This document shows positions 5,059-50,740 of a DNA stretch of 50,740 nucleotides, one piece after another. Position numbers and translations under genes: made by a program. Origin of the DNA: a virus (Duplodnaviria; Caudoviricetes); the IMG/VR virus record IMGVR_UViG_3300006754_000028, positions 1 through 50,740 of that record. One strand, given 5' to 3'. The notes under the pieces are model-generated. The model made no database searches. It was given only the letters and a program-made list of their open reading frames with translations, and was not told where the DNA came from. Within the stretch, counting starts at the first letter, position 1. Every line of letters begins with the position of its first letter.

Positions 5059-5232
5059 ATGTTCGTGACTATATTTATTCTCAGGCGCGACATCAAGAGA
5101 TGGAGCAAGGGGCACTCCGTATGGTTCGTCTACCAGGATCCAGGGTTCACATCCTGGGTCAAGGTGGGCGTTACCGAGGAGCGTCTGAAACACATGACCA
5201 AATGGAAAAGGAAACAACAGGGCTGGGGCTAA
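5059..5232 (+). CDS. Small hypothetical protein (57 aa)
   Basis: ATG 1 nt after the upstream stop; MFVTIFILRRDIKRW...QQGWG*; ends within the terminator. Confidence 0.45.
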   Translation: MFVTIFILRRDIKRWSKGHSVWFVYQDPGFTSWVKVGVTEERLKHMTKWKRKQQGWG

Positions 5233-5252
5233 CGCTTCAGCCCTTTTTTTTT
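5220..5252 (+). terminator. Intrinsic terminator ending the early operon
   Basis: GGGCTG...CAGCCC stem followed by a T run. Confidence 0.8.
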
Positions 5253-5761: not shown

Positions 5762-6123
5762 CACTCACCTCCGAACAATGTGTAGGCAAGTCCGCCAGGG
5801 TTGTCATCGCCAGAAGCCCCAGTGCCACCTTGCCTGGCAGCGGCAGCGGAACAGGCTGTCGAGAATGTAATCCCCTGCCTGCACACCACCGTCATCGTCG
5901 TGTCCTCTGCCACCGCCACCTGGAAGTCGGGGCTGGTCGTCCCGTAGGTGGGGCTGGCTGCGTCGTAGAGCTTGAAGTAGGTCATGTTAGCCTGGTTGAC
6001 CAGGCGCAGGCTGTACACCGTCCCTGAGCCGTCCAGCAGATTGTTGTCAGGTGACTTGGTGCAGCTCGACTGCTTTACCATGTCATCGAAGTTTGGTTGT
6101 AGGGTGTTGCTGGTTACAGCCAT
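5761..6123 (-). CDS. Putative virion structural protein, paralogue of 5393..5761
   Basis: Shared pattern Y(L/F)KLY..A.S...G..SP....AV ... G..F.TA. Confidence 0.6.
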   Translation of the reverse strand: MAVTSNTLQPNFDDMVKQSSCTKSPDNNLLDGSGTVYSLRLVNQANMTYFKLYDAASPTYGTTSPDFQVAVAEDTTMTVVCRQGITFSTACSAAAARQGGTGASGDDNPGGLAYTLFGGE

Positions 6124-6131
6124 GCTGCCTC

Positions 6132-6509
6132 CTATGTGTTTTTATTGTTGTCCCTGACGATGTCCTTGAACCTCAGTTCCTGCACGGTCGTGCCCAACTG
6201 CTGGATGGACAGCATGATCTGGTCGAACTTCTTCTCCACGTCCTGGAGCTGGCGCTCAAGGCTGTCTATCTTGGTGGAGAGTTCACCGATAGCCGACTTG
6301 GATTCGTCCTTGATCACCTCCTTCTCCGACTGCAGATCAGTAATCACCTTGTCGTATCTGGCCCTCAAATCATCCTCTCTGGACTCGGACTTCTCCGACA
6401 TCGCGTCGAACCTGTTCTGCATCGAACGGGTCTGCCAGACGAGGTATCCTGCAAAGCCAGCCAGTGGGCTGCCGTTGACAAACAGATCAAACAGGGTGGT
6501 CTCGTCCAT
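6132..6509 (-). CDS. Membrane-anchored coiled-coil protein (putative holin/lysis accessory)
   Basis: N-terminal hydrophobic segment (LFDLFVNGSPLAGFAGYLVW) then coiled coil; close to the endolysin. Confidence 0.5.
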   Translation of the reverse strand: MDETTLFDLFVNGSPLAGFAGYLVWQTRSMQNRFDAMSEKSESREDDLRARYDKVITDLQSEKEVIKDESKSAIGELSTKIDSLERQLQDVEKKFDQIMLSIQQLGTTVQELRFKDIVRDNNKNT

Positions 6510-6516
6510 AATTATG

Positions 6517-15000: not shown

Positions 15001-15741
15001 GACCTTGCCAGTGGACAGGGACTCGTATATCTTTTTGCCTACTTCGTGTAGTTTCTGGTCGTATTCTTCCTTGGCTTTTAGCTGCTCATCGTCGCGACTT
15101 AAATCACCAAGCAGCGTGGGCTGCTCTCCTTCAAGAGCACCCAACTGAGACATCATGTTCCAGGTTCCGGCAAACACATCGCTCGCCAGATCACCCGCAT
15201 ATGTATCAGGAGGGGGAAGAGCCTGCGCCACATATGCAGCACCAGTCCACAATATGCTTTCTGGTAGCTGGAATGTTGAGAACCCATAATGCAGCCAGCC
15301 AAGATCCTCATTGAGCATCTCCTCCTCCAGCCGCTCTGGTGACACTGTCTCCATAGCCTCCATCTGAGGGGAACCAGGATACAGCTCAGATGTCATCGCA
15401 TCGTAAACCAGTTCAGGGCTGCTGTTGTAGTCCCTCATCAGCTTCTTGTCCTGCTTGCTGTAAACGGGGTCTGCACGGTGAGTGTTGGTGATTGGATCAT
15501 AGATGGCATGAGGCTTCGGGGCTGTACCTGCGGGGACGGGTTCCATTCCCGCCCTGGTTCCAAAGGGCTGCACAGGCTCCGTCTGCAGGACGGGTCTGTC
15601 AAGTTTCTGCATCTCCGTTTCGAGTAGTTCGGTGCGTTGATCAGGCTTGGGTTCATCAGGCACATAGATGTCCGTAGCCTTCCGCAGTGCTACCTGCTCG
15701 GCCCGGTATTCCTCATATGTCTTTGGCTTGGGTGTCGCCAT
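9073..15741 (-). CDS. Giant internal virion / DNA-ejection protein (2222 aa) with LysM-like domain
   Basis: Largest of three helical proteins after the tail genes (podovirus synteny). LysM-like AGDTLASISARTGINADDLARLN; C-terminal RFLFDYNDLT...MPFFTW segment resembling phage large polyvalent proteins. Confidence 0.7.
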   Translation of the reverse strand: MATPKPKTYEEYRAEQVALRKATDIYVPDEPKPDQRTELLETEMQKLDRPVLQTEPVQPFGTRAGMEPVPAGTAPKPHAIYDPITNTHRADPVYSKQDKKLMRDYNSSPELVYDAMTSELYPGSPQMEAMETVSPERLEEEMLNEDLGWLHYGFSTFQLPESILWTGAAYVAQALPPPDTYAGDLASDVFAGTWNMMSQLGALEGEQPTLLGDLSRDDEQLKAKEEYDQKLHEVGKKIYESLSTGKVYEEGAWGSTYDETTMVGDALTPFGLDTGIELPMARGKDIIDTLISKEDARGLVVAAEKVGSKRDAAVYKILTTDSGREWLGLAAEIAIDPLWFLGPAKGGQVIRIGGKALTIGPDAAKAVNAVNRAGKTVPESQRIVVGALRGNADDLERMTEAAAVHEAKEARFAERVIETQKALDNPEQALQKARGDIQGTIENLERSSARRATVADVTPAMVTRYGTQEKALAALKAQNAKNVQEARAIKETVEVQQGKLSAMTTAQDAEKYLKNVMRQQTAAAGYHRRSAAQINRLLEAGYDGSKTLSTAGVVRLHVPFTSRTYNPIQRTFRMNAVAGDTLASISARTGINADDLARLNKMTEAQLSARITSGERIVVGIGGGGLKGLVPDFVLAQGDRLLDPLRAPNIRDIKLKMEVSPNTVTQGEKLAYLLSEAGGVGKVPLNIMDGLATLVGTRWYAPMIAKRQMDAGMQYFRGRGVESGVIDKMLGHGDKSMIRLMNTAPDIWEAYQSALTRRLTDINVARDNMVAALERISVKANDIANERLAKGGRYAGTTGQIVMDEAVGYLEKGMLHRFPAELNELYEDLVKLQEAVAAATGKSEEQVRQALQNMARFFAGDVEKYRELTEEVNTLKDEIAEIAIETIYRLQDRLDEVGKGKVPLEKGIDELRKIRDDIKRTHSSLPVEADYPFGKPGDPVVIPLVTDPMPKAKPTTSPSRTAREELVEEHKRMRAEVIPSTKGTDKELLKSIKNYTKLIADIEKQEAVIEAVIKRFRSKVPGDLTPMVERQPYLRELNASLESLRTKRGELEDLLRKQEIERPRIKVDDKRAAGPYARGLQNWEMSLWEDFQDLVVAHKAQGFTDEHMMMAVMRTMTAKAEDVKELSKRFTGTEELGARRLPPKQIAAADNQRLAKLELEKEMLLNERADLPSDARRAKTIDRRVGKIDEDIFKIEAKEDVAVVDDVAERAIYPTVMTERFVEAPDDITPLVDEFQKMFDSYKKRYLEAGMQFVKEPIDLMKDFGVVDYVPHLRYDHGKDVSRFVNTGDARAESLITGNTDQELTRHLSMNAAKLRSLQGTIEEINTMVKPGATPTNWEFTMHPALLHARMMNSSRGLASHEMFLTFLRTGVIRGFDDAEAARRAGFVPVMERNSYGLQMQMLMDGNLTMADGTRVSAAKVEEMLMALIDGNPDIQPLVSWARDISEFNNMVNVEKAVGVINALQLEAKAVPGNTWLAQFLVDGDVLDIGERFTSIRNTKHTEHLDNLRIKRDELAAKPRLTDRQRAEIDRLDELLDPSSPAYEVNYRRISNSSWKDVEKEVNSIISNVNNATKSIPERAVYETLLNRVKMSPLQPLSSKNLMMYFDPDAVSVTKMYVPEQVQESLRMLTSRTAVREGGAIGKIWNTARRLNNWWKTLVTVMSPMFHVRNEMGNNISNMLDVGVGGVLNLDTNIKSAYLSWLMDHYSRYGSLEKARRALAAPRKAGESAADFAYRKSSAATLSKLSPDLDKGIDLGDGLIRSWDEAIELMVDNGVMSGNANYRLDIDRASDFFMERAHGLSMAEAEGKIGRKFLRGWGKVEDWGAVSLSTLASGGIPMAMTKGMGTSLATRLENRSRAVNFIANLKRGRSVAESAEHVKRFLFDYNDLTPRQKDYMRLLMPFFTWTQKNFLLQIEMMKKNPMFYSNFDRLFYGTLPMVAAHIEQEEIRQELGPDAPEFTVSHKAMQHRTLERVQYYPEYKMYRVRVPGSVIGLPSGFDLEGFGLPQESFAEYMHKLQSMGTSRPGEGVIEDHFESALASTHWVARAFYSIGSGRDPFYKENLDELKMREANNVANALHTLDGLGPSFDPMANAIRDTFDVVAIANPRKESETFYYFGDSAFSEMGLALKYIPNPFERAMREGALVQDAFLKSLQTREAKMDTTVIPERLPFYLRLLNATMGIKIKQQASTDYLQSMHEQDMKNVMFDQTDGLGLTENGKVKK

Positions 15742-25494: not shown

Positions 25495-26574
25495 TTATGG
25501 CACGTCACAAGAACATGCTTGGATGAGTGGGTTATTGACGGCGAACTGAACTTCCAGGAAGACGTATGCGATATCAGCATCCATGTTCCCATGCATAGTA
25601 TGATCAGTGAACTTGGTAACGCGGAAGTCGTTGTTAGCATTGACCCAATACTGGATGCCGTTAGGGTTCAGAAGATATACGAAGTCAGCGTCACCAGTGT
25701 TACCAGCGGCAGCGATGCGGGCGTCGGTCATGAAACGGTTGGAGAAGTACTTCACACCGTTGATGACATGCACGGTCTTGTGCGCCTTGCCAGCGTCAAG
25801 GTCTTCAGGGCGGTACATCAGACCGCTCATCGTTCCGTATGTCCTGATCGCATCCCCGATGGCTACATGGTTGGTGATAGAGGTGACACCAAGAGAGATG
25901 CCCTCACTGTCATCAGCATAGCTGTCGGCGGTGATCTTCAATCTTTCAGCAACCTCCATATAATCAGTTCCAAATCCAGTGTGAGCCTCGAACTGGTTGT
26001 ACCAGTTGTCCTCGTCGTTGGTCGTATCCTCGACACGGGTGAGGTTCATGTATGTGACACCTGCCGCAGCCTGTGCAGTCGGGGTCTCAAATTGCAAGGC
26101 TCCATTTTCAAAACCACTAGAAGACAAACCAGTCTTACCACCGTTAAGTGTTCCCAGTCCAGTCAACGTCGCTACATCACCTACATAGAGCTGGCGTGAA
26201 ACACTGTTGTGGAATGACTGCAGAACGGCAGCGGTCGTGTCATTGACCCAGCGCTTTTTATCGGCATTCGACTGCATGCGATCCCTGTCGATGTGAGGCA
26301 GGATGATCGGCTTGACAACACGTGCCCAGTCGCCGTAAGCGAAATCGAAGGTCTCTTTCTTGGCGAGTGGAATCTCAAGATTGGTTCCGTCAAGCTGGGT
26401 GATGTCTGAGTGACCGCTTTTGATACGCGGTATGCGGACGTTGGTTCCACCTGATCGAACGACTCTGTTCTTGGAGCGCAGGGCTTCAAGAAGCGGATCC
26501 TTCGAGTAGAAAGAAGGTATCGACTTCTTTACAACATCAGGTACGGTAAAGTTGGCATATTCTAGTAAGCCCAT
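25495..26574 (-). CDS. Major capsid protein (HK97 fold)
   Basis: 359 aa after the scaffold; SGGTNVRIP, LYVGD...GL and YLLNP motifs; AAGGA SD. Confidence 0.75.
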   Translation of the reverse strand: MGLLEYANFTVPDVVKKSIPSFYSKDPLLEALRSKNRVVRSGGTNVRIPRIKSGHSDITQLDGTNLEIPLAKKETFDFAYGDWARVVKPIILPHIDRDRMQSNADKKRWVNDTTAAVLQSFHNSVSRQLYVGDVATLTGLGTLNGGKTGLSSSGFENGALQFETPTAQAAAGVTYMNLTRVEDTTNDEDNWYNQFEAHTGFGTDYMEVAERLKITADSYADDSEGISLGVTSITNHVAIGDAIRTYGTMSGLMYRPEDLDAGKAHKTVHVINGVKYFSNRFMTDARIAAAGNTGDADFVYLLNPNGIQYWVNANNDFRVTKFTDHTMHGNMDADIAYVFLEVQFAVNNPLIQACSCDVP

Positions 26575-28630: not shown

Positions 28631-30313
28631 TTATGCTCCTGGGAATGGTATGCCTGCCATCGGCGGCATCTGTTCTGGTTGTGGCTCGTCCTGTTCAGCC
28701 TCTTCCTTCATAATAGAGGGGCGAATGTTGAACATTTCTACTAGTTCCTTGGTTATCTCCCTCCAGTCCACCTCCTCTCCTGAAGGTGTCTGTGCGAGTG
28801 ACCCGAGAAGATCCACGAGTTGCTGTCTCCTGACAACCTTGTCCTCCATCAGCGGACTGAACGGAAGCACTCGGAACTTCGGCATGTTCTCAAGGAAGTC
28901 CCTGGCCAGAAGTTCTGGTGTGGCGTCGAGCTGCGTCTGCATAGCCAGCATAGCCAGGTCTATTCCTGAAGCATCTGGATTCGCCAGACACCAGCGGGTG
29001 ATCTCCGCTGCCTTGTCGAAACCTCTCTGGATAAACTTGACCAGCAGCCTGGTGCGCACCTGCATCCTGCCCTGTATCGACATCTGAATCATATTGGCTT
29101 CCGCCGCTGTACGGATGTTCTTGACCTCGCCACGCTGGAAGTCAGCCATTCCCGCAATGTTCTTGATGTGCGCCGAAGCCTGTCCAAGATGGTTGTTGAA
29201 GTCGAAGGTGGTGGGCATCTCAGGGGTCACGAAGATCATGTCACCCACAAGCGACTGACCGTCGGTCTCGACAGGTACTGGCTCCCAGGTTGCGCTTTTC
29301 ATGAAGCGACTGGCATCTTCCTCCGAAGGGAACATCGCCTTGTCGTAAAACATACGGCGGGGCAGGCGTCGGACTATCTCTCTCCTGGCACTGACCAGTT
29401 CATTGATGTCCTGCTGCAGAGGGGCTATCAGGGTAGCATCAGGGATGCCTCGAATGCGTCCCACACCAGGGTGGAAGCACAGTTGATCGTATGGATTGCC
29501 GTAGGGCGCGGCGGTCTCCATCACTATCTGCTTGGTTCCCATGTGGATGTGGTACAGCTTCTTCTCACGGAAGTCCCAGTACTCATGCATCGTCACATAT
29601 TCCTTCATTCCCTTGCGGCGTATCTCCTGCTCCTGGTCGTTTGACTGGTAGTCCTCGATCAGGCTCCTGGGATAGGTGTCGGGCTTGATGACCCTGTTGC
29701 CGCTAAGTGTGTACGAACCGTCCTCGACCCTCGCCCTGACCTGTGATTCATGAAGGATGAACCTCTCCGAAGCCCATGAAATGTCGCTGATGCGCCGAGC
29801 CACAGAGTCAAACTGAACCTCCCACGGCATCTTCAGCCGCCATATCACACGCCCCAGCTCCCTAGACCAGGTGATCTTGCGGATGGCTCCAGAGGAAAAG
29901 AGCATCGCGTGGAGAACTGCCTCCCTTGACATCTCATCCATGTCATCTTTTTCAGCCATCCAATTCAGAACCGCAGCTATGCGCCGCCCTGAGAAGGTTA
30001 TATCCTCGCTTCTTTGTGGAATTTCGTATGATCGCTGACGCGCATCCAAGACTTCGCACTGGGGCAAATCCAATGCGAGGGCAGAAATGATGGTGTCGAT
30101 GATGGGAAAAACCTCATTCTGCTCCGCGTTGTAATTGCTAAGCTCTGGAAAAGGACTCGTTCCGTCACCCTCCCAGAACTGGCCCCTCCAATATGCGAGG
30201 TTGCGAGCATCCTCCACAGCAACATGCTTTCTGTAGTGCTCCTCCGCATGATTGATGTGAGACATCAGCCTCGCCGCCTTCTTGGCAAACTCGTTCTTCT
30301 TGTCCTCAGTCAT
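28631..30313 (-). CDS. Portal protein
   Basis: Follows TerL with an ATGA overlap (start 30313). Early YWRGQ, VTMHEYWD and RTAAEA motifs and a Q/P/M tail as in P22-like portals. Confidence 0.8.
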   Translation of the reverse strand: MTEDKKNEFAKKAARLMSHINHAEEHYRKHVAVEDARNLAYWRGQFWEGDGTSPFPELSNYNAEQNEVFPIIDTIISALALDLPQCEVLDARQRSYEIPQRSEDITFSGRRIAAVLNWMAEKDDMDEMSREAVLHAMLFSSGAIRKITWSRELGRVIWRLKMPWEVQFDSVARRISDISWASERFILHESQVRARVEDGSYTLSGNRVIKPDTYPRSLIEDYQSNDQEQEIRRKGMKEYVTMHEYWDFREKKLYHIHMGTKQIVMETAAPYGNPYDQLCFHPGVGRIRGIPDATLIAPLQQDINELVSARREIVRRLPRRMFYDKAMFPSEEDASRFMKSATWEPVPVETDGQSLVGDMIFVTPEMPTTFDFNNHLGQASAHIKNIAGMADFQRGEVKNIRTAAEANMIQMSIQGRMQVRTRLLVKFIQRGFDKAAEITRWCLANPDASGIDLAMLAMQTQLDATPELLARDFLENMPKFRVLPFSPLMEDKVVRRQQLVDLLGSLAQTPSGEEVDWREITKELVEMFNIRPSIMKEEAEQDEPQPEQMPPMAGIPFPGA

Positions 30314-31935
30314 AAGTGACTTCCCCATGGAGTATTCTTGGGCTGACTTGCCAGACCATCTATTCGAGATTGTAACCGACGAAACGCCTCTGCCGCCAAT
30401 ATTTTTGGGTCTTTCTTCTTCTGCTTCCAACTGGATCCTCGGTGATTCATGTACGCCCAGGACGCTCCAGCCCACGCCGTAGCGAGATCGTAGTGACCGC
30501 CGCTGGCATCCCTCGACCTCTCAGCCCACTGCCCACGGTATGTCAGCAACTGACGCAGGCTCCTGGAACTGTGTATGGTGACGGATTCATCCTCGATGAG
30601 CTGCTGCATGTACCCCTCGGCTTCGCGCTTGGTCTTCACGCTGCTCCACCAACCTGGGGTGCGAGAGCGAGAACGGCTATGCCTGCTTGGAGTACGATGA
30701 AAAACACGCCTATAGCTAATATTAGGGTTGTCCACAAGATGAGATAGAACACTTTCGCCAACACCGTTCGCCTCCACATAGATCATCGCCTCGTTGTACC
30801 GCCTTCCCCACTCGCCAAGTTTCTGCGCCATCTGATAGGCGCTCATATGCCCCAGGTATTCTGCAGCCTGCTCGCACGTGCTGATGTTGAGGATGACCAC
30901 TCCGTAGTGGTCTCTCTCCGACCAGGATGAAGCGGGGTCAACGAAGATGATGTACTTGTCCTTTGGATCAGGCTCCTGGAACTGCACCCAGGGGTCGGTC
31001 TCGATGCCGAGACCAGTGCCTCCGTCCAGATCCTGCAGCCATCGCCTGAGAATAGACTGGTCATAGACGGCATCGCCAGTCATTGCCCAGCAGTCGTACT
31101 CGTTGATCGGATACTCCTGCTTGAACTTCTCGATGTTCCTGTTGCACTTCTGCAGACCGCTGACCTGCATCCAGTAAGCCTGACCAGGGGTTATCATCGG
31201 GTACTCGTCCCAGTATTCCTGGATGACCTTAGAGGGCTTCCACTTCGGGGGAACAGGCTTGCTGTACTCAGCTATCATTGTCCAGGGTATGAACACCTTC
31301 ATCCACTTGCTGTCTGGTCTTTCGCTTGCCATGCACAGCATGTGGAGTTGATCACCGTGGTGCTTGGGTGTAGATTCCGCCACGAAGAAACCGCCGTCTT
31401 CTGGCACTGCGTTCAGCACGGATGCCCACACCTCGTCGCCACCCTCCTCCTGCCACGAAGACAGCTCAGTGCCTAGCACTACCTGGACGGTCTCACCACG
31501 GAGAGGCTCGTCATCCTGCACCGAGGCTACGTCGAGTTTGCTGTCGATGTCAGGGAACTCCAAAGTCCTCTGCAGCTTTCCATGACGGCGAGGGCGTATG
31601 CTGGCAGGGCACGACTTGTAGAAGCGGTTAGCAATCTCAGCCAGGGATTTTGCGTTCTTTTTCTTGTGACCTATGATGGCGACCTGGCATCCAGTACGGA
31701 ACGCCGCGTGTTGGAATGCAACACCAGTAAAAAACGTAGACGAGCCTTCCTGGCGTGGCTTGATATGCACCAACCACTTCTGCTGTGCGTATGCAGCCTG
31801 CACCGCTGCAGCAAGGATCATCTGGTGATCCCATAGTCTGAACGGTTGCAGACCTTTGGACTTTGTTCTGATCTGCAGCATCGGCAGAAAAGCAGCGGGG
31901 TTCCAGAAGTCGGGATGTTCTGGAGGTATGATCAT
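30310..31935 (-). CDS. terL: Terminase large subunit
   Basis: Walker A-like HIKPRQEGSST, Walker B-like VVLGTE, coupling motif ESTP; nuclease IFVDPA...IYVEANGVG...HYD. Confidence 0.9.
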   Translation of the reverse strand: MIIPPEHPDFWNPAAFLPMLQIRTKSKGLQPFRLWDHQMILAAAVQAAYAQQKWLVHIKPRQEGSSTFFTGVAFQHAAFRTGCQVAIIGHKKKNAKSLAEIANRFYKSCPASIRPRRHGKLQRTLEFPDIDSKLDVASVQDDEPLRGETVQVVLGTELSSWQEEGGDEVWASVLNAVPEDGGFFVAESTPKHHGDQLHMLCMASERPDSKWMKVFIPWTMIAEYSKPVPPKWKPSKVIQEYWDEYPMITPGQAYWMQVSGLQKCNRNIEKFKQEYPINEYDCWAMTGDAVYDQSILRRWLQDLDGGTGLGIETDPWVQFQEPDPKDKYIIFVDPASSWSERDHYGVVILNISTCEQAAEYLGHMSAYQMAQKLGEWGRRYNEAMIYVEANGVGESVLSHLVDNPNISYRRVFHRTPSRHSRSRSRTPGWWSSVKTKREAEGYMQQLIEDESVTIHSSRSLRQLLTYRGQWAERSRDASGGHYDLATAWAGASWAYMNHRGSSWKQKKKDPKILAAEAFRRLQSRIDGLASQPKNTPWGSHL

Positions 31936-39318: not shown

Positions 39319-39569
39319 ATTTCGGACAGAGGATAATGGACATACTGAAGGGACTGGGTGTCAGCTACCTGGACTTCTGCAGGCGTTGCGGCGCAAGCCA
39401 CAGCACCCTGAACAGGTGGGCGGGTGGACAGACCCCTAGGGTTGACTACTTCGTCTGCGCCTGTGAGACACTTGCCAACATCAGGGGTCAGACAATTGAT
39501 GATGTCATACAGGAGATGCTCTGGTCTGTGCCAGAGTACAAGCTTGCAAAGAAGAGGGAGCAGTCATGA
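39315..39569 (+). CDS. XRE-family HTH protein
   Basis: GVSYLDFCRRCGASHSTLNRWAGGQTPR; ATGA-coupled on both sides. Confidence 0.7.
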   Translation: MNFGQRIMDILKGLGVSYLDFCRRCGASHSTLNRWAGGQTPRVDYFVCACETLANIRGQTIDDVIQEMLWSVPEYKLAKKREQS

Positions 39570-40138
39570 AGCCGAGACCGATCATACTCTGCAGCGGTGG
39601 AATAGACAGCCTGGCGCTTACCGTCATGGCTGTAACCAGGGGACTAGACCCCTTGCTGCTGCACATACAGTACGACCATCCAGCCGCCCGGGAGGAACTG
39701 GAAGCAGTGCGAAAGATATACAGCGCGTTTGCAGGATCATGCAAACTGCGTTTGCAGGAGATGGAAATAAACAGCTCACCGCTGGACAGCGGCATAGGTG
39801 AGCCAGGGCCCAGGGTGGTCAGGGGAAGGAACCTGATGCTTATCGCCGCAGCGTTGAACGCCTCACAGAGTGGAGACTACAACCAGATATGGATAGGATG
39901 CACCAAAGAGGACGACGAGCACTACTGGGACTGCAGGGACACCTTCATACACGCCCTCAACATATTGATCAAAGACGGGGTCGGAGTAGCTGCGCCTCTA
40001 ATCAACATGACCAGGAAACAAATACTCGTCATGATACCAGAACCAATTCAATACCTGGCATGGAGCTGTTACCAACCGTACTGCGGTGTGCCCTGCGGAA
40101 GGTGTAATTCATGCCTTCAGGGGGGCGGCAATGACTGA
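39566..40138 (+). CDS. queC: QueC-family (7-cyano-7-deazaguanine synthase-like) protein
   Basis: PP-loop SGGIDS, V.GRN, Y.DCR..F, APL and Zn ligands WSCY...PCGRCNSC. Confidence 0.85.
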   Translation: MKPRPIILCSGGIDSLALTVMAVTRGLDPLLLHIQYDHPAAREELEAVRKIYSAFAGSCKLRLQEMEINSSPLDSGIGEPGPRVVRGRNLMLIAAALNASQSGDYNQIWIGCTKEDDEHYWDCRDTFIHALNILIKDGVGVAAPLINMTRKQILVMIPEPIQYLAWSCYQPYCGVPCGRCNSCLQGGGND

Positions 40139-40997
40139 CGAGAGACTGACTAATGCGCGACCGATCGTATCGGTCAGCGGGGGGAAGGACAGCACAGCCA
40201 TGTGCCTGCATCTGTTCGAACTAGGCTACACGAAGGACGACTTCGACCGCGTGTTCATGGACACTGGGTGGGAGCATGCTGACACCTACAAGTACTTGGA
40301 CAAACTGGAGGAGACCATCGGGCCGATCACCAGGCTGCAGGCTGACATCAAGATCCGCCCAGGAATGGAGAAGGAGGTCGAGCGTTTCGAGGCAAGGATC
40401 GGCCGCTACAGTCCCATGATCCGATACATAATAAACGACACAATCTTCCCTTCCGGGGCGGCCAAGTGGTGTACGCGGAAATTAAAGATCGAACCCATAT
40501 CTAAATATTTCGACAGCCTTGACTTTGAATTTGTCAACCTGGTCGGCATCCGACGGGAGGAATCCCCACGTCGATCCCAGATGACTGAATGGGAGTGGAA
40601 CGACGGATGGGACTGCTGGGTCTGGCGTCCGCTGATAGCCTGGACTGAGAATCAGGTCATCGACATACACCGCCGATGGAACCTCGTGCCCAACCGACTG
40701 TACCTGAACGGCTCGACAAGGGTGGGCTGCTACCCATGCGTGTATGTAAAGAAGTCAGCGGTCAAGAACCTGGACGATGCCAGGGTGGATCTGATCAGGG
40801 ATCTAGAGGAGACCGTCAACCGGCTGGCAAGCGCAAAGAAGCCGGGCATCAAAAGACTGTCCTTCTTCCCCCGCCTGGATGGCATCGACGAGGTTGTCCA
40901 GTGGAGCAGGACAGCCTACGGAGGAAAGCAGTTCGAGATGTTTTCATCTGAAGAACCGACCTGCGTCAGATGGGGAATGTGCGAGTTCAAAGATTAA
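40131..40997 (+). CDS. PAPS-reductase (CysH/DndC)-family PP-loop protein
   Basis: VSGGKDS, FMDTGWE, WCT..LK..P, GIRREES.RR, RPL..W and RVGCYPC. Confidence 0.85.
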   Translation: MTDERLTNARPIVSVSGGKDSTAMCLHLFELGYTKDDFDRVFMDTGWEHADTYKYLDKLEETIGPITRLQADIKIRPGMEKEVERFEARIGRYSPMIRYIINDTIFPSGAAKWCTRKLKIEPISKYFDSLDFEFVNLVGIRREESPRRSQMTEWEWNDGWDCWVWRPLIAWTENQVIDIHRRWNLVPNRLYLNGSTRVGCYPCVYVKKSAVKNLDDARVDLIRDLEETVNRLASAKKPGIKRLSFFPRLDGIDEVVQWSRTAYGGKQFEMFSSEEPTCVRWGMCEFKD

Positions 40998-44462: not shown

Positions 44463-44610
44463 CTTTATCCTCCTTTGAAAGACGAGCGAAATGCTCATCC
44501 TTGATTCTCTTGACAACCTTCTCGTACTGATAGTAATGCGCCTCATACAGATACTGAAGCACCGCTGGATCACTGTACGCCCTCTCCATCAAATCATCCA
44601 GGTCAATCAC
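44449..44610 (-). CDS. Small hypothetical protein (53 aa)
   Basis: GTGA overlap with the MTase stop; MIDLDDLMERAYSD...KDGRG*. Confidence 0.5.
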   Translation of the reverse strand: MIDLDDLMERAYSDPAVLQYLYEAHYYQYEKVVKRIKDEHFARLSKEDKDGRG

Positions 44611-45242
44611 AGCAAACCCACCTCGTCACCCTCCATGTACCAGCCCACCCTCTCAGAGCGACTGAACATGTAGAGATACCCTCCCGCAGAACGCCTCTCG
44701 ACAAGATCATAGAACTCATCTGGCTTCTGGCTGTGCTTCCTCTTCGATGCCCTGACAATAGAACTGACTCCGTTGTCTCCAGTCTTAACCTGGCTGCCCC
44801 GTCCCCGTACACCAAACAGACACAGCTCATGCTGGCCCCTGAAGTAGTACCCAAGACCAAAACTAGGCTTAACCCAGCAAATATTGGTGATGTAACGGAA
44901 ACCAACCTCCCGCATCACCTTCAATCCGTCCTCAAGGTGGTTGTTAGTCACCCACAGGTACATATGGGCGTTCTCAGACACCTCATAGCCCTTCAGCCAC
45001 TCACGCATCACCAGTACACTTGCATCAGCACCCAACAGACTGTAATGCCTGTCAGCACCCCTCTGTATACGTCCACCACCACGCTCCAACCAAGGAGGAT
45101 CAGCAACAATCGTACTGACACTACGCAATTCGTCCCCTGAAACAAACTCAGGACACTCATCATGAGCTGATAACTCTGCAATTCGTCCACAATCCAACGA
45201 ACAATGCCAGCAATTGTCACGTTCAAAACGCTCAACAGACAT
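44607..45242 (-). CDS. MT-A70-family N6-adenine methyltransferase
   Basis: IVADPPW, HMYLWVTN, ICWVK..GLGYYFR..HE.CLFG, HSQKP and Y.YMFSR motifs; GGAGG SD before ATG 45242. Confidence 0.85.
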   Translation of the reverse strand: MSVERFERDNCWHCSLDCGRIAELSAHDECPEFVSGDELRSVSTIVADPPWLERGGGRIQRGADRHYSLLGADASVLVMREWLKGYEVSENAHMYLWVTNNHLEDGLKVMREVGFRYITNICWVKPSFGLGYYFRGQHELCLFGVRGRGSQVKTGDNGVSSIVRASKRKHSQKPDEFYDLVERRSAGGYLYMFSRSERVGWYMEGDEVGLL

Positions 45243-45927
45243 TCTAATCCTCCGATACAGCCGACACATAATGTAATTCGCTCAATGCGACGGCAGATGT
45301 TGAAATCCTCTGTTTTTCGTCGGGGTTAAACATCGAAGAACTTGTTCTTCTCTGTTAACACCCCTAGAAAAACCCTCTAATTAGGAATGTAACCACAAAT
45401 CAGCCCGAAATCCACTGCCATCTTCTAGTGACCGCTAGATTGCCCGTATGATGGGGGAGGAAAAAACCGTAAAAAAAGACAGCAAAGCAATACATCGAAG
45501 GGGAAAACGGCGCAAATGGAAGAAACAGGATACTCTGGAAAAGCTGAAAACCTCTCTAGGGGGGTAACACATATATGGTCATCCCCCACGGGGGGGGAGC
45601 ACCACCCAACCCCCATGCACATGCGATCATTTCTGTCGGCGCGCACAGCTCCGCTCGCCCAGTAGAGGAGTTTCAAATTCCTCTTAATGCCAAAAATCGA
45701 ACCTGGGACGGGGCCGTTGCTCGCAGCTACAGAACAGGTCTGGATCTCGGTTCTGATTCCGACGCTGGACATGCTCGCCTACCGTCAGATCTGCCACTGT
45801 CCCATGTTCAATTGCCCAACGTGCTCCACTGGTTCAACCGTGCAAAATAAAAAAAAACGATATTTCTTTCATCCCCGTGGTTAGGGGCTATTCTGGTACA
45901 ATGTCATGATTATCGTAGACAGCCTGT

Positions 45928-45955
45928 TTGTAAATGTCGAGAATCGAATTACAAT
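45928..45955 (+). promoter_or_regulatory. Putative early sigma70-type promoter
   Basis: TTGTAA, 16-nt spacer, TACAAT. Confidence 0.5.
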
Positions 45956-45960
45956 GATTT

Positions 45961-46590
45961 CACAAACCGAGGGCGGCAACCAAGCCGAACCGGAAAGGAG
46001 GTACATCACCATAGTTTCAAAGGGTCGTTCCCACAACGTCAAGGCAGATCCGCCTAGGATCCCTGGAGACACTTCCCGAGGGGAAGGCCGCATTAGTCGA
46101 GCGGAGTCCATGCACAAGACGAACCGCACTGCGAGGATCAAATGCTACCTGTATCATGGGGACATGAATGCTTGATCCATATCGAAGCCCCGACATAGGC
46201 TTGATCAGTGTTTTGGAGAGATCAGAACAGCGACATTAATACAGCCGTGCAATCGGGGAGGGTGTGACAACCTAGCCGTAGCCTACCTAGTAGGCGAGCA
46301 CAGAACAGGCTACCCGCTGGATCAACAATAGCGCCGGGTGAACGGATCCTTTAAACAGGAGTCGCCGGTGTACAAGTAGGGATAGGGAAAAACCCACCGT
46401 GCAACCTGGTGTTCGCCGGGTGGTGAGTGGAGACTATCCCCCAGATCTAGCGAAATTGTGAGATGTTCCGATTGATGGTAGCGATACCGAGATCCAAACA
46501 ACCGCGGCGAATCCTCCTCCTATATGGTGGGAGGAGCACATAAAAAGGTAGCCACTCTACTTTATCGGCTATCTGTGCTTCTCCTTTTTA
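45961..46590 (+). ncRNA. Candidate large structured RNA (~630 nt)
   Basis: Many hairpins, nested long-range helices, GNRA loops and G-U pairs; no credible ORF. Confidence 0.55.
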
Positions 46591-46619
46591 ACTATATTTC
46601 AACCAACAAAGGAGCAAAA

Positions 46620-46973
46620 ATGCATATAGTAGACCAAGCGTTACTCAAAGAGATCACCCGATTGGATGAAGAGAATTCCATTCTCCGATTAAGGATCAAG
46701 ACCATCGAACAAGAAGCCGGGGTTAAAAACCTCCGTCGCCTTGAAAAGAAGATCCAACAATTGAGGGCTGCAAACGTGAACATGTCTAGCGTAATAACTG
46801 CCCTCGAATCATTCCGGGACTATGTCTATGATCAACGTGACGATCATGCACTCCTGTCCTATGAGTGTTTCACTGAGCATCATGAAAAATGCGGGTACGA
46901 TTTTTGGCTAGAGAATCCTAACAGTGAATCGTTTCATGATGATCCTGATCATCTACCCGATCGGGCCTGGTAA
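46620..46973 (+). CDS. Hypothetical coiled-coil early protein
   Basis: AAGGAG SD before ATG 46620. Confidence 0.7.
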   Translation: MHIVDQALLKEITRLDEENSILRLRIKTIEQEAGVKNLRRLEKKIQQLRAANVNMSSVITALESFRDYVYDQRDDHALLSYECFTEHHEKCGYDFWLENPNSESFHDDPDHLPDRAW

Positions 46974-47057
46974 GTCTACCCGATCCGATCTTTACTTTGG
47001 GGATCATTCGATCCCCCTTTGATTCTATTTCACAACAAACCAACAACAGGAGCAAAC

Positions 47058-47300
47058 ATGAACTATAAGGAAACTGAAAGCCATCTTATTTACACGCCGC
47101 TGTGGTGGCATTTACAAGGGCTTCAACAGACCTCTAGCGGGTATGGTAGTAAACTTACTACCCCGTACAAGGTTCGACACGACGGTCGATTGTACCGGGT
47201 CTATTGTATCTGCTGGAGTAACTCCGGAAGCCTGTACATATTGCCGGGCGGCCGTCCCCTTTATCTCCAGTCCTGGAACACTTTCCGGCCGGCTGAATAA
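47058..47300 (+). CDS. Hypothetical early protein
   Basis: Leader repeat plus AGGAG; SGYGSKLTT...YRVY...SNSG. Confidence 0.75.
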   Translation: MNYKETESHLIYTPLWWHLQGLQQTSSGYGSKLTTPYKVRHDGRLYRVYCICWSNSGSLYILPGGRPLYLQSWNTFRPAE

Positions 47301-47380
47301 GCCCGATCCGATCTTTACTTTGGGGATCAAGTGATCCCCCTTTGATTCTATTTCACAACAATCCATAGGAGGATAACCCA

Positions 47381-47635
47381 ATGACAAAACCAACATCACC
47401 TACAACCCTGCGAGTCTACGTTGTCGTAGACTCGGAAGGCAACCAGATCAGGGCGCATATGAATCTTGACAGGGCGACGGCTCAAGCCGATGAGATAGGC
47501 GGCGTGGTGTGGTGCGTACTGTACCGCACTGAGGGATCATTCCTGATCCATCCCGATCGCCCCGATGACCTGGAAGATGTCCACCCGTCCCGTCCAACGG
47601 ATGGCGTGTTCGAAACCTGGTCACTTGTTCGCTGA
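47381..47635 (+). CDS. Hypothetical early protein
   Basis: Leader repeat plus GGAGGATA. Confidence 0.7.
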   Translation: MTKPTSPTTLRVYVVVDSEGNQIRAHMNLDRATAQADEIGGVVWCVLYRTEGSFLIHPDRPDDLEDVHPSRPTDGVFETWSLVR

Positions 47636-47723
47636 TCTACCTTTACATCTAGACCCCGGGATCAAGTGATCCCCCTTTGATTCTATTTCACAACAACAAA
47701 CCAATCCATAGGAGGATAACCCA

Positions 47724-47990
47724 ATGATTACTACCCTAACTATCGAAGCCTGCTCCGACTGCTACACCTATGCAAGCGGTGACCTTTCATCCTTTGACTA
47801 CTACTACGATAAAGAGGAATCAGAGAGGCTCATAGGCCACATAGAAGAGCGCACCACCGAACTGTGCAACGAGCACGGATACATGACACAGGGTGATAGC
47901 CTCGGCTTCTCTAACTCATCCTGCGAGTGCTGCAATTCACACCTGGCCGGCGACCGTCACGAATTGGTGTTCATCTCGGAGTCACAATGA
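47724..47990 (+). CDS. Putative Zn-binding early protein
   Basis: CSDC...FS..SCECC...LAGDRH. Confidence 0.7.
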   Translation: MITTLTIEACSDCYTYASGDLSSFDYYYDKEESERLIGHIEERTTELCNEHGYMTQGDSLGFSNSSCECCNSHLAGDRHELVFISESQ

Positions 47991-48133
47991 CTGAATTCTT
48001 TGTGCTCCTTGAATGCCTGGGCCTGGGGCTGCTAGCCCTGGTGCTCGTTCCCAACTGGAACAGTGATACAAAACTGGAGATGGTCTCTGTCCCTGTGGCA
48101 GGACTCGCCCTGCTGATCTGGCTCTACATCTAG
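47987..48133 (+). CDS. Small two-helix membrane protein (48 aa)
   Basis: ATGA coupling with GGAG; two hydrophobic segments. Confidence 0.6.
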   Translation: MTEFFVLLECLGLGLLALVLVPNWNSDTKLEMVSVPVAGLALLIWLYI

Positions 48134-48193
48134 ACCCCGGGATCCGTAGATCCCCTTTGATTCTATTTCACAACCAACCAAGGAGGATAACCA

Positions 48194-48355
48194 ATGAGTA
48201 TCAACACAATCATGCTTGAAGCATACAAAGACTACATCGAATATAATCTTGACCGAATTGCCAGAGATGGGTGGACACCGGTCTGCTTCGAGGAGTTTAA
48301 AGCCAGCGCGGAGTCAGAGCACGTCACCGACACAACAACAGGGGAGTCACAATGA
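48194..48355 (+). CDS. Small hypothetical early protein (53 aa)
   Basis: Leader repeat plus GGAGGATA; MSINTIMLEAY...GESQ*. Confidence 0.65.
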   Translation: MSINTIMLEAYKDYIEYNLDRIARDGWTPVCFEEFKASAESEHVTDTTTGESQ

Positions 48356-48448
48356 CCTGCTGATCTACCTTTACATCTAGCAACCTGGGATCCGAGGATC
48401 CCTTTTGATTCTATTTACAACAACAACAACCAAACCAGGAGGATAAAA

Positions 48449-48721
48449 ATGCCTGAACAATACAGGAAAGTAAAATCAATCGGCAACGTACGGGTATTCT
48501 CATACAAGTACTTGGGCCCAACCAATCACCGAGGAAGCCGCATCAAAATCACTGACAAGTGGTTCGGAAAGTCAAAGACTATCCCATGGGATTACACGTT
48601 CAATTCATCCTACGAAGGGGCGATAGCCTACCTCATAGACCAGGGCTTTGACGTAGCCAGCATGAACAGCGAGGAGCAAATTATCATCATCAATGGCTGG
48701 ACTAGCCAGGAACTCAAGTAA
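48449..48721 (+). CDS. Hypothetical early protein
   Basis: Leader repeat; KYLGPTNHRGSRIK motif. Confidence 0.75.
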   Translation: MPEQYRKVKSIGNVRVFSYKYLGPTNHRGSRIKITDKWFGKSKTIPWDYTFNSSYEGAIAYLIDQGFDVASMNSEEQIIIINGWTSQELK

Positions 48722-48746
48722 CACAACAACCAAGGAGGATAACCCA

Positions 48747-48881
48747 ATGATACTGACCCTAGAAGAGGACGAGATACTCTATCTGCTGATACTCGGTGGC
48801 TACACATTCGAGGACGTAGCTGAGATGTTTGATCTGCCAGTGTCGGAGATCAAGCGCATCTACAGGCAATCACAAGACTAG
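48747..48881 (+). CDS. Small HTH protein (sigma70 region-4-like)
   Basis: GYTFEDVAEMFDLPVSEIKRI; GGAGGATA SD. Confidence 0.6.
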   Translation: MILTLEEDEILYLLILGGYTFEDVAEMFDLPVSEIKRIYRQSQD

Positions 48882-48942
48882 CAGCCCGGGGAGTTAACCC
48901 TCCCCCTTTGATTCTATTTCAACTACAACCAAGGAGGATAAC

Positions 48943-49248
48943 ATGAGAAGAGAACACGTTAAAACCATACACGGCAACCTTGTGTATAAGGACACTTGCT
49001 ACATCCAATGGGAATACACCTTCACCTACACGAGGGAAGGGGCAACCTATACAAACACATACAAGAGTTTGATTGCCCCTGAAATTATAGATGGAAAGAT
49101 AACCGAGGGCGGATTGCAATGTTCAAGACCTTATCATAACTGCAAGATTATAGGGGTCACAAAATACCGTCTGTGTACCACAGGAGGAGTCACTGTCGAA
49201 CTATATAACAACCAACAACAACAACCATCCAAGGAGGATAACCAATGA
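48943..49248 (+). CDS. Hypothetical early protein
   Basis: Leader repeat plus GGAGGATA. Confidence 0.65.
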   Translation: MRREHVKTIHGNLVYKDTCYIQWEYTFTYTREGATYTNTYKSLIAPEIIDGKITEGGLQCSRPYHNCKIIGVTKYRLCTTGGVTVELYNNQQQQPSKEDNQ

Positions 49249-49643
49249 TTAATTATCAAACAAACAACAACGGCGAAGGAGCCAACATGAGTAAGAGAAT
49301 GACAAAGAGACTTGAAAAACTGACAGCAAAGTTGAATGAGTACCTTAACTCACTGAAAGAGGAGAGATACGAGGAAATTGATGGCGGCGGACAGGTTCAC
49401 CACCTCAATGATACAGGGCTGTGGATAGGTCGGGATCAGGTCAGCCAATATTCAAAATGCAACGCAGAAATGGTCTTTCATTTTGATGGTGCTGGATATG
49501 ACATGTTCAGCGGGCAGGGAGACTATGTGTACACTGGTCTAACCAAATACAGAGACATGATTTTTAACATAGCTGAAAAGCACGGATTCCATGCCGAGCC
49601 CCTTAACAATTGGTCAATCGGATTCTATTGGGACGGTGTGTAA
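49245..49643 (+). CDS. Hypothetical early protein (alternative start 49287)
   Basis: Two in-frame SD+ATG leaders. Confidence 0.7.
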   Translation: MINYQTNNNGEGANMSKRMTKRLEKLTAKLNEYLNSLKEERYEEIDGGGQVHHLNDTGLWIGRDQVSQYSKCNAEMVFHFDGAGYDMFSGQGDYVYTGLTKYRDMIFNIAEKHGFHAEPLNNWSIGFYWDGV

Positions 49644-49674
49644 TGAGCAATATCACGAAGAGAGGGGAGCACAG

Positions 49675-50310
49675 ATGACACATAGACGACTCATAATTAC
49701 CTTTCAGAAGGGGCGGGGCAGAGATTGGACTGATTATTTCCCATTGTTTGAAAAGCATATCATCCGGGTTCTTGAAAAATTGACCAGCACCCGAATGATC
49801 AATACAATGCGGATCACCGTCAAAATGCGCAAGACTGAATTAGATCGTAGAGACGCTGCTGGAACCTGCGGAAGTTGGAAGGATTCCAAGAAGTCCAATG
49901 GATCAAAAAGCAAGCACTTCCCAATATCCCTGCATTCCGAATCAAGCCTGTTCCAGAATCTCAAAACACTGACACATGAACTGATGCATGCCGTGCAATT
50001 TGCAGAGGGGCGGCTGGGATCGCGATATCTGAAAACCCATCGTATAACATACCAGACATGGAGACCAAAAGGGCACACAGGCCCCAGCATCAGATACCCT
50101 TACTGGGATCATGACCCAAAAAGGATCGGGATGGGCAAGGGTAGGGAAAAAGTGATCATCCCCTGGGCGGAACGACCGTGGGAGATAGAGGCACAAAAAG
50201 CCGAACGCGATCTGATGTTTATAGCAGAGTTTCATGCAAACTGCTGGGCAAGCTATTCCCCATATCAATTCCCAATAACTAAGTCCGAACAGATCTACAC
50301 CGACCTTTGA
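49675..50310 (+). CDS. Putative zincin-like metallopeptidase
   Basis: THELMH (HExxH) and downstream RPWEIEA. Confidence 0.7.
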   Translation: MTHRRLIITFQKGRGRDWTDYFPLFEKHIIRVLEKLTSTRMINTMRITVKMRKTELDRRDAAGTCGSWKDSKKSNGSKSKHFPISLHSESSLFQNLKTLTHELMHAVQFAEGRLGSRYLKTHRITYQTWRPKGHTGPSIRYPYWDHDPKRIGMGKGREKVIIPWAERPWEIEAQKAERDLMFIAEFHANCWASYSPYQFPITKSEQIYTDL

Positions 50311-50375
50311 TATGCCGTAGGGTGAAAGCCCTACTTTGATTCTATTTCAACTACAACCAACCAAGGAGGATAACA

Positions 50376-50699
50376 ATGACAACCATAACAATGACATTCG
50401 AACTGAGCGCAGAGGATTTCAGATCTATATTTAGATACGTCGATATTTCTTACTGGGCAACGAGGCTGGAGAACGATGACCTAGTCGATGTCTATGCCCC
50501 GGACGAGGCGTTTGAGATCACCCGAGCCAAGATGGAGCAGGCGATCGGAGAGATGTTCGCGGCGGGGCAGCCTGGGAACAGTCTAATGTTCCAGGGCATA
50601 GACCAATTCGTTCGGCACGGATGCCCTGGCAGCATCGACAGCGACGTTGCCAACTGCATCTTACAGTGGTGCTGCTTCGGCAAGATCAAATACGGATAA
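50376..50699 (+). CDS. Hypothetical early protein
   Basis: Leader repeat plus GGAGGATA; ISYWA...ILQ...FG.IKYG. Confidence 0.75.
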   Translation: MTTITMTFELSAEDFRSIFRYVDISYWATRLENDDLVDVYAPDEAFEITRAKMEQAIGEMFAAGQPGNSLMFQGIDQFVRHGCPGSIDSDVANCILQWCCFGKIKYG

Positions 50700-50740
50700 C
50701 AACAACAACCAACAACCAATCCATAGGAGGATAACAATGA

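Follow-up and report, generated by a model that had tools for sequence, protein, structure and literature searches.

Small genes of an uncultured marine phage lineage are separated by a repeated intergenic module, consisting of a short GC-rich hairpin and a conserved T-rich tail. The module is found in IMG/VR virus record IMGVR_UViG_3300006754_000028. The window analysed here is this whole record of 50,740 bases, which is rated 99% complete and 'linear'. The modules lie in a block of about 27 small genes on the plus strand, most of which belong to no family. Behind the hairpin, each module has a 13-nt tail (TTTGATTCTATTT in the exact copies), a CA-rich leader, and a Shine-Dalgarno (SD) sequence before the ATG of the next gene. 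Hairpin and tail may together form a leaky terminator which leaves a hairpin on the 3' end of the upstream message, while the module also acts as a recombination seam. We hold this reading to be about evenly balanced between right and wrong.

The 13-mer occurs in seven exact copies starting at 47018, 47341, 47676, 48156, 48404, 48907 and 50335, all on the plus strand. The whole record holds seven forward and no reverse copies; a backwards control gave none in either orientation. When up to two mismatches are allowed there are ten matches compared with a shuffle mean of 0.73, and ten was reached in 0 of 100 shuffles. Every exact copy is preceded by a GC-rich hairpin of 6-7 bp with a loop of 4-6 nt, and the gap between stem and motif is 0-2 nt. 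A preliminary description of this DNA had reported seven exact copies, each after a stem-loop, and the stems and loops it listed all match. There are two variant copies beyond these seven, TTTAACTCTATTT at 1497 and TTTAACTATATTT at 46587. Nine of the 13 tail bases are T, and in the predicted fold the tail is unpaired beside a stable stem. Both strands were searched for a complement of the tail, such as a matching antisense RNA would carry; none is present elsewhere in the genome.

Counting the variants, there are nine modules. Module 0 (46529-46599) precedes the first gene of the block (ATG at 46620). It has a 57-nt hairpin (46529-46585) followed by a T-run and the variant TTTAACTATATTT (46587-46599). 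The lower stem has 12 pairs including two G.U pairs, and there are about 19 pairs overall; the fold has a free energy of about -30 kcal/mol, and 46515-46622 has a z-score of -5.9. Module 1 (46999-47060) has the hairpin GGGGATC-ATTC-GATCCCC at 46999-47016, the 13-mer at 47018-47030, a CA-rich leader, the SD AGGAG and an ATG at 47058. Module 2 (47322-47383) has GGGGATC-AAGT-GATCCCC at 47322-47339 and the 13-mer at 47341-47353, again with leader and SD, before an ATG at 47381. These two form a direct repeat of about 60 nt that brackets gene 47058-47300: sequences 46979-47038 and 47302-47361 are the same except for three loop bases, in agreement with the near-identity described earlier. Leader and SD follow the 13-mer in the next five modules too. 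Module 3 (47658-47726) has GGGATC-AAGT-GATCCC at 47658-47673, the 13-mer at 47676-47688 and an ATG at 47724; module 4 (48139-48196) has GGGATC-CGTA-GATCCC at 48139-48154, the 13-mer at 48156-48168 and an ATG at 48194; and module 5 (48387-48451) has GGGATC-CGAG-GATCCC at 48387-48402, the 13-mer at 48404-48416 and an ATG at 48449. The stem sequence is different in module 6 (48888-48945; GGGGAG-TTAACC-CTCCCC at 48888-48905, 13-mer at 48907-48919, ATG at 48943), the hairpin of which recurs beside other genes in related contigs L167, L174, L177 and L180. Module 7 (50317-50378) has GTAGGG(T)-GAAA-(G)CCCTAC at 50317-50334, the 13-mer at 50335-50347 and an ATG at 50376. Module 8 (1474-1546) has GGGGGGT-TCCCC-ACCCCCC at 1474-1492, then GC, a T-run with TTTAACTCTATTT (1497-1509), and a longer leader before an ATG at 1544; it has an ortholog at L174:5865. 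All modules are on the plus strand. The end of the hairpin is 37-41 nt from the next ATG and the 13-mer is 23-35 nt from it, with the SD inside that stretch.

It had been suggested that the modules provide one common leader. This is only loosely true; neither the length nor the sequence of the CA-rich leaders is constant. The extended SD AGGAGGATAA (up to one mismatch) is found 21 times in the window compared with 2.7 expected, 16 times on the plus strand and five times on the minus strand; it is a genome-wide translation signal and is not module-specific.

Related strains carry the same architecture. Metagenome contigs were scanned once with an exact 18-mer containing the motif, and 40 loci were returned. 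Thirty of these are single matches in unrelated contexts; the other ten are related phage fragments with the full arrangement of hairpin, tail, CA-rich leader and SD, and several have four or five copies. After deduplication, the window and the related loci provide 35 distinct TTTNAYTMTATTT instances with enough upstream sequence. Twenty-eight of these, from the window and nine related loci, are internal and have perfect stems of 5-9 bp which are G-rich in the 5' arm and C-rich in the 3' arm. The stem ends 0-3 nt before TTT in all 28, and exactly 1 nt before it in 25. Two further instances have a G7 stem. The remaining five ('first-gene' instances) follow long hairpins of about -30 kcal/mol, which the T-run directly adjoins in four of the five. 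Long hairpins equivalent to that of module 0 precede the first gene in L164, L174 and L177.

Across these instances there are about ten stem sequences (GGGGATC, GGGATC, GGGGAG, GTAGGGT, GGGGAC, GGAGATC, GGGGA, GGGGGA.., CATGGGGAG and GGGGGGT) and about 16 loops of 3-6 nt. The 5' arm is always G-rich and pairing is always kept. One orthologous junction, that behind the first gene, shows a compensatory double change, with GGGGATC/GATCCCC in the window and GGAGATC/GATCTCC in L164. Selection therefore acts on pairing and not on stem sequence, which bears out the earlier claim that structure rather than sequence is conserved. In the 46529-46585 stem, the G.U pairs are consistent with transcription of the RNA from the plus strand.

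Because the related loci had been fetched with the motif, the search was repeated from the hairpins. Perfect hairpins were collected from both strands of 42 kb of putative early regions, a scan which is unbiased for the tail. On the plus strand, 26 of 71 hairpins have the tail within 3 nt and two more have it at offset 4; the others are intragenic. On the minus strand, none of 71 hairpins carries it. No intergenic GGGG..CCCC hairpin with any tail other than TTTNAYTMTATTT was found in these 42 kb. The background is low: there are four hits to the relaxed motif in 1.0 Mb of unrelated phage loci (both strands), and 80 loci from D12-methylase relatives (38-56% identity), used as a negative control, have at most one hit each. 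A 15-mer scan of viral contigs gave 115 stretches; the 80 listed are each single-copy and were taken as chance matches, their contexts uninspected. A longer degenerate pattern found one locus, L140, the context of which is the same as that of L154. The 13-mer is absent from G001 and G002, the two whole records searched among five terminase relatives, and its sole match in the literature is in an unrelated Entamoeba paper. Both the 13-mer and the phage lineage are new to print.

The modules have the anatomy of intrinsic terminators: a GC-rich stem-loop is followed by a U-rich tract, on the transcribed strand and behind stop codons. All seven exact copies pass a scan for terminator-like sites (12 sites found; shuffles 5.8 +/- 2.7), and the hairpin at 1473-1493 passes as well, as do the modules of related loci. 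The leaky terminators proposed in the preliminary description thus agree with the anatomy of the sites, including the T-rich tract 0-3 nt behind the stem, the restriction to one strand and the lack of a promoter for restarting; termination itself is a prediction from these features. According to this model, host RNA polymerase would start at host-type promoters near 45.9 kb and read the plus-strand block with its approximately 27 small genes. The transcript would extend from 46.6 kb, through the end of the record, to 5.2 kb, and the promoter-proximal genes would mostly end in a short GC-rich RNA hairpin with the U-rich tail UUUGAUUCUAUUU. Hairpin and tail would act as a weak intrinsic terminator or attenuator, at which some polymerases stop and leave a hairpin-capped 3' end. 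The remaining polymerases would read through, so that expression would be graded along the block. The hairpin would belong to the upstream cassette as its 3' end, the CA-rich leader and SD would belong to the downstream cassette, and the 13-mer would be the seam between them. With an identical seam and flanks at many junctions and in many strains, homologous recombination could swap, delete and insert cassettes while leaving genes intact.

Continuity of the block across the ends of the record is indicated by a near-identical metagenome contig, L171, which has 442 nt (2406-2847) between the record's end and its start that are missing from the record. L171 joins the two ends, and 46.6-50.7 kb and 1-5.2 kb are thus a single continuous plus-strand gene block. 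The 442 extra bases supply most of a 144-aa gene starting at 50737, as well as the beginning of the gene left open at window position 2. The block is closed by a canonical strong terminator (5219-5252, plus strand) with an 11-bp stem followed by T9.

Two candidate promoters lie upstream of the block on the plus strand. One is an extended -10, TGgTACAAT, read from the sequence at 45894-45902; the other is TTGTAA-16-TACAAT at 45928-45955, which was found by scanning and has 9 of 12 matches. We infer that these are host-type early promoters feeding the block. Judged by these, the phage appears to use canonical promoters outside the modules, and the more distant relative G002 has a canonical TTGACA-17-(G)ATATAGT. 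Between the candidate promoters and the first gene, about 700 nt (45860-46620) contain no convincing ORF and end in the 57-nt hairpin. At the same place L164, L174 and L177 have a different leader of about 500 nt, 78-96% identical among themselves. The 45860-46620 region could encode a non-coding RNA or act in cis as a leader, perhaps in antitermination.

Several observations weigh against termination as the function of the modules. Nine sites follow one another and no internal promoter could be detected, which would deprive the roughly 20 downstream genes of transcription unless the sites are very leaky or an unseen antitermination mechanism exists. Since no promoter for restarting is visible, any terminators must be leaky or be overridden through antitermination. 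With stems of 6-7 bp (-8.5 to -13 kcal/mol) and an interrupted T-tract, compared with 11 bp and T9 at the end of the block, a terminator of this kind is predicted to be weak. It should also be noted that the related loci were fetched through an exact 18-mer holding the motif, and one exact copy per locus is present by construction. Finally, the tail has a fixed G or A, A, C and A at positions 4, 5, 8 and 10, which a U-tract does not need.

The relative G002 also weighs on this side. It has a genome of 45 kb, and its terminase is 75% identical at the amino acid level. Its first four early junctions have hairpins without any U-tract, in repeated intercistronic modules at L136:4248-4300, 4928-4980, 5868-5915 and 6465-6515. 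Three of them form long, irregular folds of about 52 nt (z -3.6 to -4.9), whereas the fourth is no better than shuffles (z -1.32); there is one compensatory change between copies, and the leader ACACACGGAGATAAC follows. If these hairpins are analogous to those of the window, termination is not the common function, and what unites the lineage may be the presence of an RNA hairpin between cistrons and not termination itself. Near its contig ends G002 also has three occurrences of a word of 25 nt or more (L136:56-80; G002 44675 and 45046), which could represent terminal or tandem repeats.

Conservation of the tail is strict. In the hairpin-first set (n = 28), positions 1-3, 5, 7 and 9-13 are invariant, position 4 is G or A, position 6 is a pyrimidine, and position 8 is A or C. 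All 30 internal copies have a purine at position 4, whereas the five first-gene copies have A, C, C, T and T there. Loop, stem and leader vary freely within a few bases of the invariant 13 nt. Selection on the tail thus seems to be more specific than U-richness alone would call for.

A site for RNA processing or stability would make use of these fixed bases. According to this explanation, an endoribonuclease cuts the long transcript inside UUUGA|UUCUAUUU; the enzyme would be a single-strand-specific host enzyme of the RNase E type or a phage enzyme, and the hairpin would shield the upstream fragment from 3' exonucleases. The downstream fragment would start with the CA-rich leader, which would give gene-sized mRNAs with different half-lives, and processing of this kind can coexist with weak termination. 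RNase E prefers RN|WUU and RAUUW, to which the tail appears to bear some resemblance. The purine at position 4, the invariant A5 and U7 fit a sequence-read site better than they fit a plain U-tract, the first-gene copies have no upstream gene to release and are not purine-restricted at position 4, the tail is predicted to be single-stranded beside its stem, and G002 retains intercistronic hairpins in which U-tracts are lacking. However, the strict 1-nt gap between stem and TTT is needed for termination and not for cleavage, and tail positions 6 and 8, which correspond to +1 and +3 of the RNase E consensus, vary. Processing is possible as the principal function of the module, with the balance well against it.

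More generally, the 13-mer might be the recognition word of a dedicated factor acting at every cassette boundary, which we consider doubtful. Candidates are an endoribonuclease with sequence specificity, an RNA-binding protein for antitermination or termination, and a specificity factor of the polymerase. If this were true, every cassette of leader, gene and hairpin would plug in as a unit of expression through a universal connector, and this connector would be common to an entire population of uncultured marine phages. The non-T bases fixed in the tail offer a concrete starting point for finding a sequence-specific RNA or transcription factor.

Promoters are a further class of explanation. 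The 13-mer, with or without the hairpin, could be read as a promoter by an injected or early phage factor, an RNA polymerase or specificity factor of an unrecognised kind. Each cassette would then be its own transcription unit, with either a terminator-promoter pair or a hairpin promoter like that of phage N4. The invariant 13-mer beside freely varying flanks is consistent with this, as is the copy that precedes the very first gene right behind a strong terminator-like hairpin; the tail variant TATATT at 46593-46598 matches the -10 hexamer at five of six positions. A 44-aa protein encoded in the block (48747-48881, plus strand) matches Sigma70 region 4 in Pfam (E 6.5e-6; score 26.0 bits, cut-off 24.1), and could be a small mimic of this region or a factor directed at it. 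However, no sigma-70-like -35/-10 site is present at any module in the window, L174 or L177, as the preliminary description had already noted for the window, and the counts of such sites in the two scanned regions are at chance level (9 compared with 8.2 expected, and 6 compared with 3.5 expected). No such promoter fits, because the 37-41 nt between hairpin and ATG are too short for a -35, a -10 and a 5' UTR with SD; the 23-35 nt between 13-mer and ATG must likewise hold the SD. The majority hexamers TTCTAT and TCTATT lack A at -11. Three further sigma-70 readings were rejected for want of consistent spacing or the A at -11: TG-A-TTCTAT as an extended -10, TTGATT as a -35, and an extruded hairpin with a -35 upstream of it. 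No polymerase family was found among the 71 ORFs (Pfam, PHROGs), and a six-frame search for T7-type RNA polymerase (PF00940), in which no control genome gave a hit, found none. The approximately 16 loops are not conserved, unlike those of N4 promoter hairpins, and the same gene is found both with and without a module. A promoter function for the module is unlikely.

The hairpin could alternatively precede a site at which Nus factors are loaded. In this scenario the tail would be a boxA-type element behind a boxB-like hairpin, in the style of rrn leaders, and would counter Rho across the short genes. The order of a hairpin followed by C-YCTTTRA resembles that of boxB and boxA, and the variant at 1491-1501, GCTTTTTAACT, matches the boxA consensus GYTCTTTAANA at 8 of 10 specified positions. 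The majority form CCCCTTTGATT matches at only 6 of 10; the consensus is gamma-proteobacterial, however, and may not be that of the host. According to PMC5725501, which gives this consensus, a C4T/T6C double mutation abolished boxA function; the best variants in the window (7-8 of 10) carry T at position 4, one of these two positions. Nine such sites would also be unprecedented. Identity with the gamma-proteobacterial boxA is rejected on the match to the consensus, and a boxA-type role in general is given very little credence.

A role as recombination seam is supported by comparison of cassette order in related strains. Gene order in the block differs between every pair of related contigs, which gives a mosaic. 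Nucleotide homology blocks of at least 150 nt were determined between the block of the window and nine related loci, and a block end was assigned to a gene junction when it was within 10 nt. Twenty-one of 34 internal block ends are at junctions, although the junction windows cover just 18% of the block. These 21 comprise 12 hairpin modules, four plain leaders and five overlapping stop/start junctions. The earlier proposal that the modules are recombination points therefore holds in that gene-content breakpoints cluster at junctions; however, junctions which lack a hairpin break too, and the seam role is common to both.

The flanks of the modules change partners. The GGGGAG-TTAACC hairpin is flanked by four upstream and five downstream gene families, and gene 47058-47300 is replaced by other genes in L143 and L164. 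The module is also optional: family F11 is preceded by the GTAGGG hairpin in the window, by GGGGAG in L174, and by a leader lacking a hairpin in L180 and L154. The type of hairpin tends to go with the gene that precedes it: GGGATC accompanies F4 in 3 of 3 loci, GGGATC-CTCG accompanies F27 in 2 of 2, GGGGAC accompanies F11, here as the upstream gene, in 2 of 2 (L154 and L174), and F21 also keeps its hairpin type. The leader tends to stay with the downstream gene (F27 and F28). Linkage of the hairpin to the upstream gene and of the leader to the downstream gene fits a 3' element.

No clean joint that deletes a cassette between two modules was found in contigs of four DNA runs, in which rare circles would be invisible. 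Some loose contig ends were considered as candidate joints and rejected. Those at 50353 and 50391 reflect window 320-414 misplaced on a similar leader; the end at 48197 and a 'skip' from 48197 to 50353 are ambiguous, again through a similar leader. The ends at 47719 and 47720 lead into gene starts which are absent from the window and present in L143, L164 and L180, and therefore represent co-occurring related strains rather than new joints. Contig breaks at repeats are expected from assembly.

Recombination at the seams might instead be driven by a dedicated recombinase that reads the hairpin in DNA, as in elements of the IS200/IS605, REP or integron-cassette type. Hairpins of the same orientation with fixed flanking words bracket the cassettes, and cassette content varies among strains. 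A comparable idea exists for the promoter-early stem-loops (PeSLs) of T4-type phages, the authors of PMC2839356 having suggested a recombination protein that binds the stem-loop. Six-frame searches of the 99%-complete record found no Y1 transposase (PF01797; the controls gave hits in 6 of 14 genomes) and no tyrosine integrase (PF00589; 14 of 14). Breakpoints are found at hairpin-less junctions too, the perfect hairpins of 16-18 nt are unlike attC sites, and general recombination by the phage's own Sak and RusA suffices. A dedicated mobile or site-specific element is extremely improbable.

The module might also be a functionally neutral repeat, spread and homogenised by duplication and gene conversion. 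Modules 1 and 2, identical over about 60 nt, point to a recent duplication or conversion. However, conversion tracts would not yield 13 invariant nt amid freely varying flanks, a pattern that indicates sequence-specific selection instead; stems change with compensation, and the rules of strand and position are strict. Neutrality is very unlikely.

The remainder of the genome places the block in context. Structural and lysis genes occupy the minus strand from about 32 kb down to 5.4 kb, and include the terminase (30310-31935, minus strand), a major-head-like gene (25495-26574, minus strand) and an amidase. The tail and virion part encodes a 2222-aa protein (9073-15741, minus strand) in which a LysM domain (residues 578-606) is all that can be recognised; it has no PHROG, no sequence relative in the PDB and no DxDxD motif. 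On these grounds it was rejected as a crAss-like or N4-like polymerase, and it is probably an ejected or internal virion protein. Genes for recombination and DNA modification lie at 34.9-45.3 kb (Sak, RusA, a DnaQ-like exonuclease, QueC-like and PAPS-reductase-like proteins and an MT-A70 methylase). There are two DNA adenine methylases, of the D12 class (690-1370, plus strand) and MT-A70 (44607-45269, minus strand). Together with the QueC-like and PAPS-reductase-like pair at 39566-40997 (plus strand), these suggest DNA modification. Most module stems contain two GATC words (GGGATC..GATCCC), and GATC-free stems exist too; a connection between these words and the phage methylases is probably incidental.

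The phage has no close cultured relative. A blastn search of 46500-50740 against 50,697 phage records gave no match, and the major capsid protein has no match among cultured phages. The best cultured-phage match to the terminase is from a Roseobacter phage (24.7% identical). In species genomes, profile matches to the terminase reach just 22-28% identity and belong to unrelated phyla, which does not point to a host. None of 24 listed sequencing runs is an RNA run. An Rfam search over the whole window found nothing.

Small accessory genes are carried as cassettes with standard connectors and can be shuffled by recombination without breaking expression. A promoter-less connector made of a hairpin and a fixed 13-nt word may be a testable case of weak stops in series that grade expression of an early operon. 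The combination of hairpin and TTTNAYTMTATTT is also a search handle for cassette genes of this phage group in metagenomes.

Among known systems, the modules do not have the features of N4-type hairpin promoters: no polymerase was found in the record, and there are about 16 loops of 3-6 nt. They also lack those of attC or IS200/IS605 elements, as the six frames contain no cognate integrase or Y1 transposase. Phage T7 has RNase III sites between its early genes, and its gene 10 mRNA has a 5' hairpin and an AU-rich leader. The modules are similar in that intercistronic RNA structures lie in what is probably an early polycistronic transcript, and could lead to gene-sized mRNAs with hairpin-protected ends. 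RNase III needs about two helix turns, or around 20 bp, whereas the stems in the window are 6-7 bp (5-9 bp among internal instances). Identity as RNase III sites is rejected for this reason. Only the hairpin at 46529-46585, with about 19 pairs, and three of the four G002 modules approach the required length; these three look more like RNase III-type sites.

Start-associated sequences (SAS) and extended SAS occur in cluster K mycobacteriophages (PMC3203893). The SAS reportedly lie a few bases before the start codon and contain the ribosome-binding site. Here, the 13-mer is 23-35 nt before the ATG, upstream of a separate SD, and is tied to a hairpin. The two are alike in being a 13-nt word before many genes of one phage group, sometimes with an upstream inverted repeat, and in having functions that are putative.

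A closer parallel in terms of the hairpin and tail is found in the Pseudomonas phage phiKZ, for which terminators mapped by ONT-cappable-seq are described as having a conserved hairpin and a TTAT-containing tail (PMC10914365). As reported there, many terminator hairpins of one phage have a common shape and a conserved tail and are mostly intergenic, which shows that one phage can maintain an entire terminator family in which the tail sequence is conserved. The phiKZ 3' ends are mapped, the 5' arm is C-rich, and the phage is a giant one with its own polymerases; the present modules differ in their G-rich 5' arm and in a longer, more strongly conserved tail, and are terminators by prediction from sequence.

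The PeSLs, to which the modules were compared in the preliminary description, combine a stem-loop with a strong sigma-70-like promoter (-35/N17/-10) according to PMC2839356 and PMC4122927. The comparison is sound for architecture and for shuffling, but the defining promoter is missing. Both are repeated composite intergenic elements extending from the stop of one small ORFan to the SD and ATG of the next. In both, a stem-loop of the GGGG..CCCC type has an actual or assumed role as terminator or attenuator; both are concentrated in a hyperplastic block of small genes, in which insertions, deletions and replacements between relatives are joined at the elements. The differences are that no sigma-70 promoter matches or fits in the present modules, that their core is a 13-nt T-rich tail abutting the stem, and that this 50.7-kb phage is not T4-like. 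A further PeSL feature is the excision of mini-circles when adjacent elements recombine; the contigs of four DNA runs, in which rare circles would be invisible, gave no clean joint of this kind. The modules are therefore not classed as PeSLs. They are a promoter-less variant of the same idea of a regulatory cassette linker, and show a PeSL-like design principle in an uncultured marine phage lineage.

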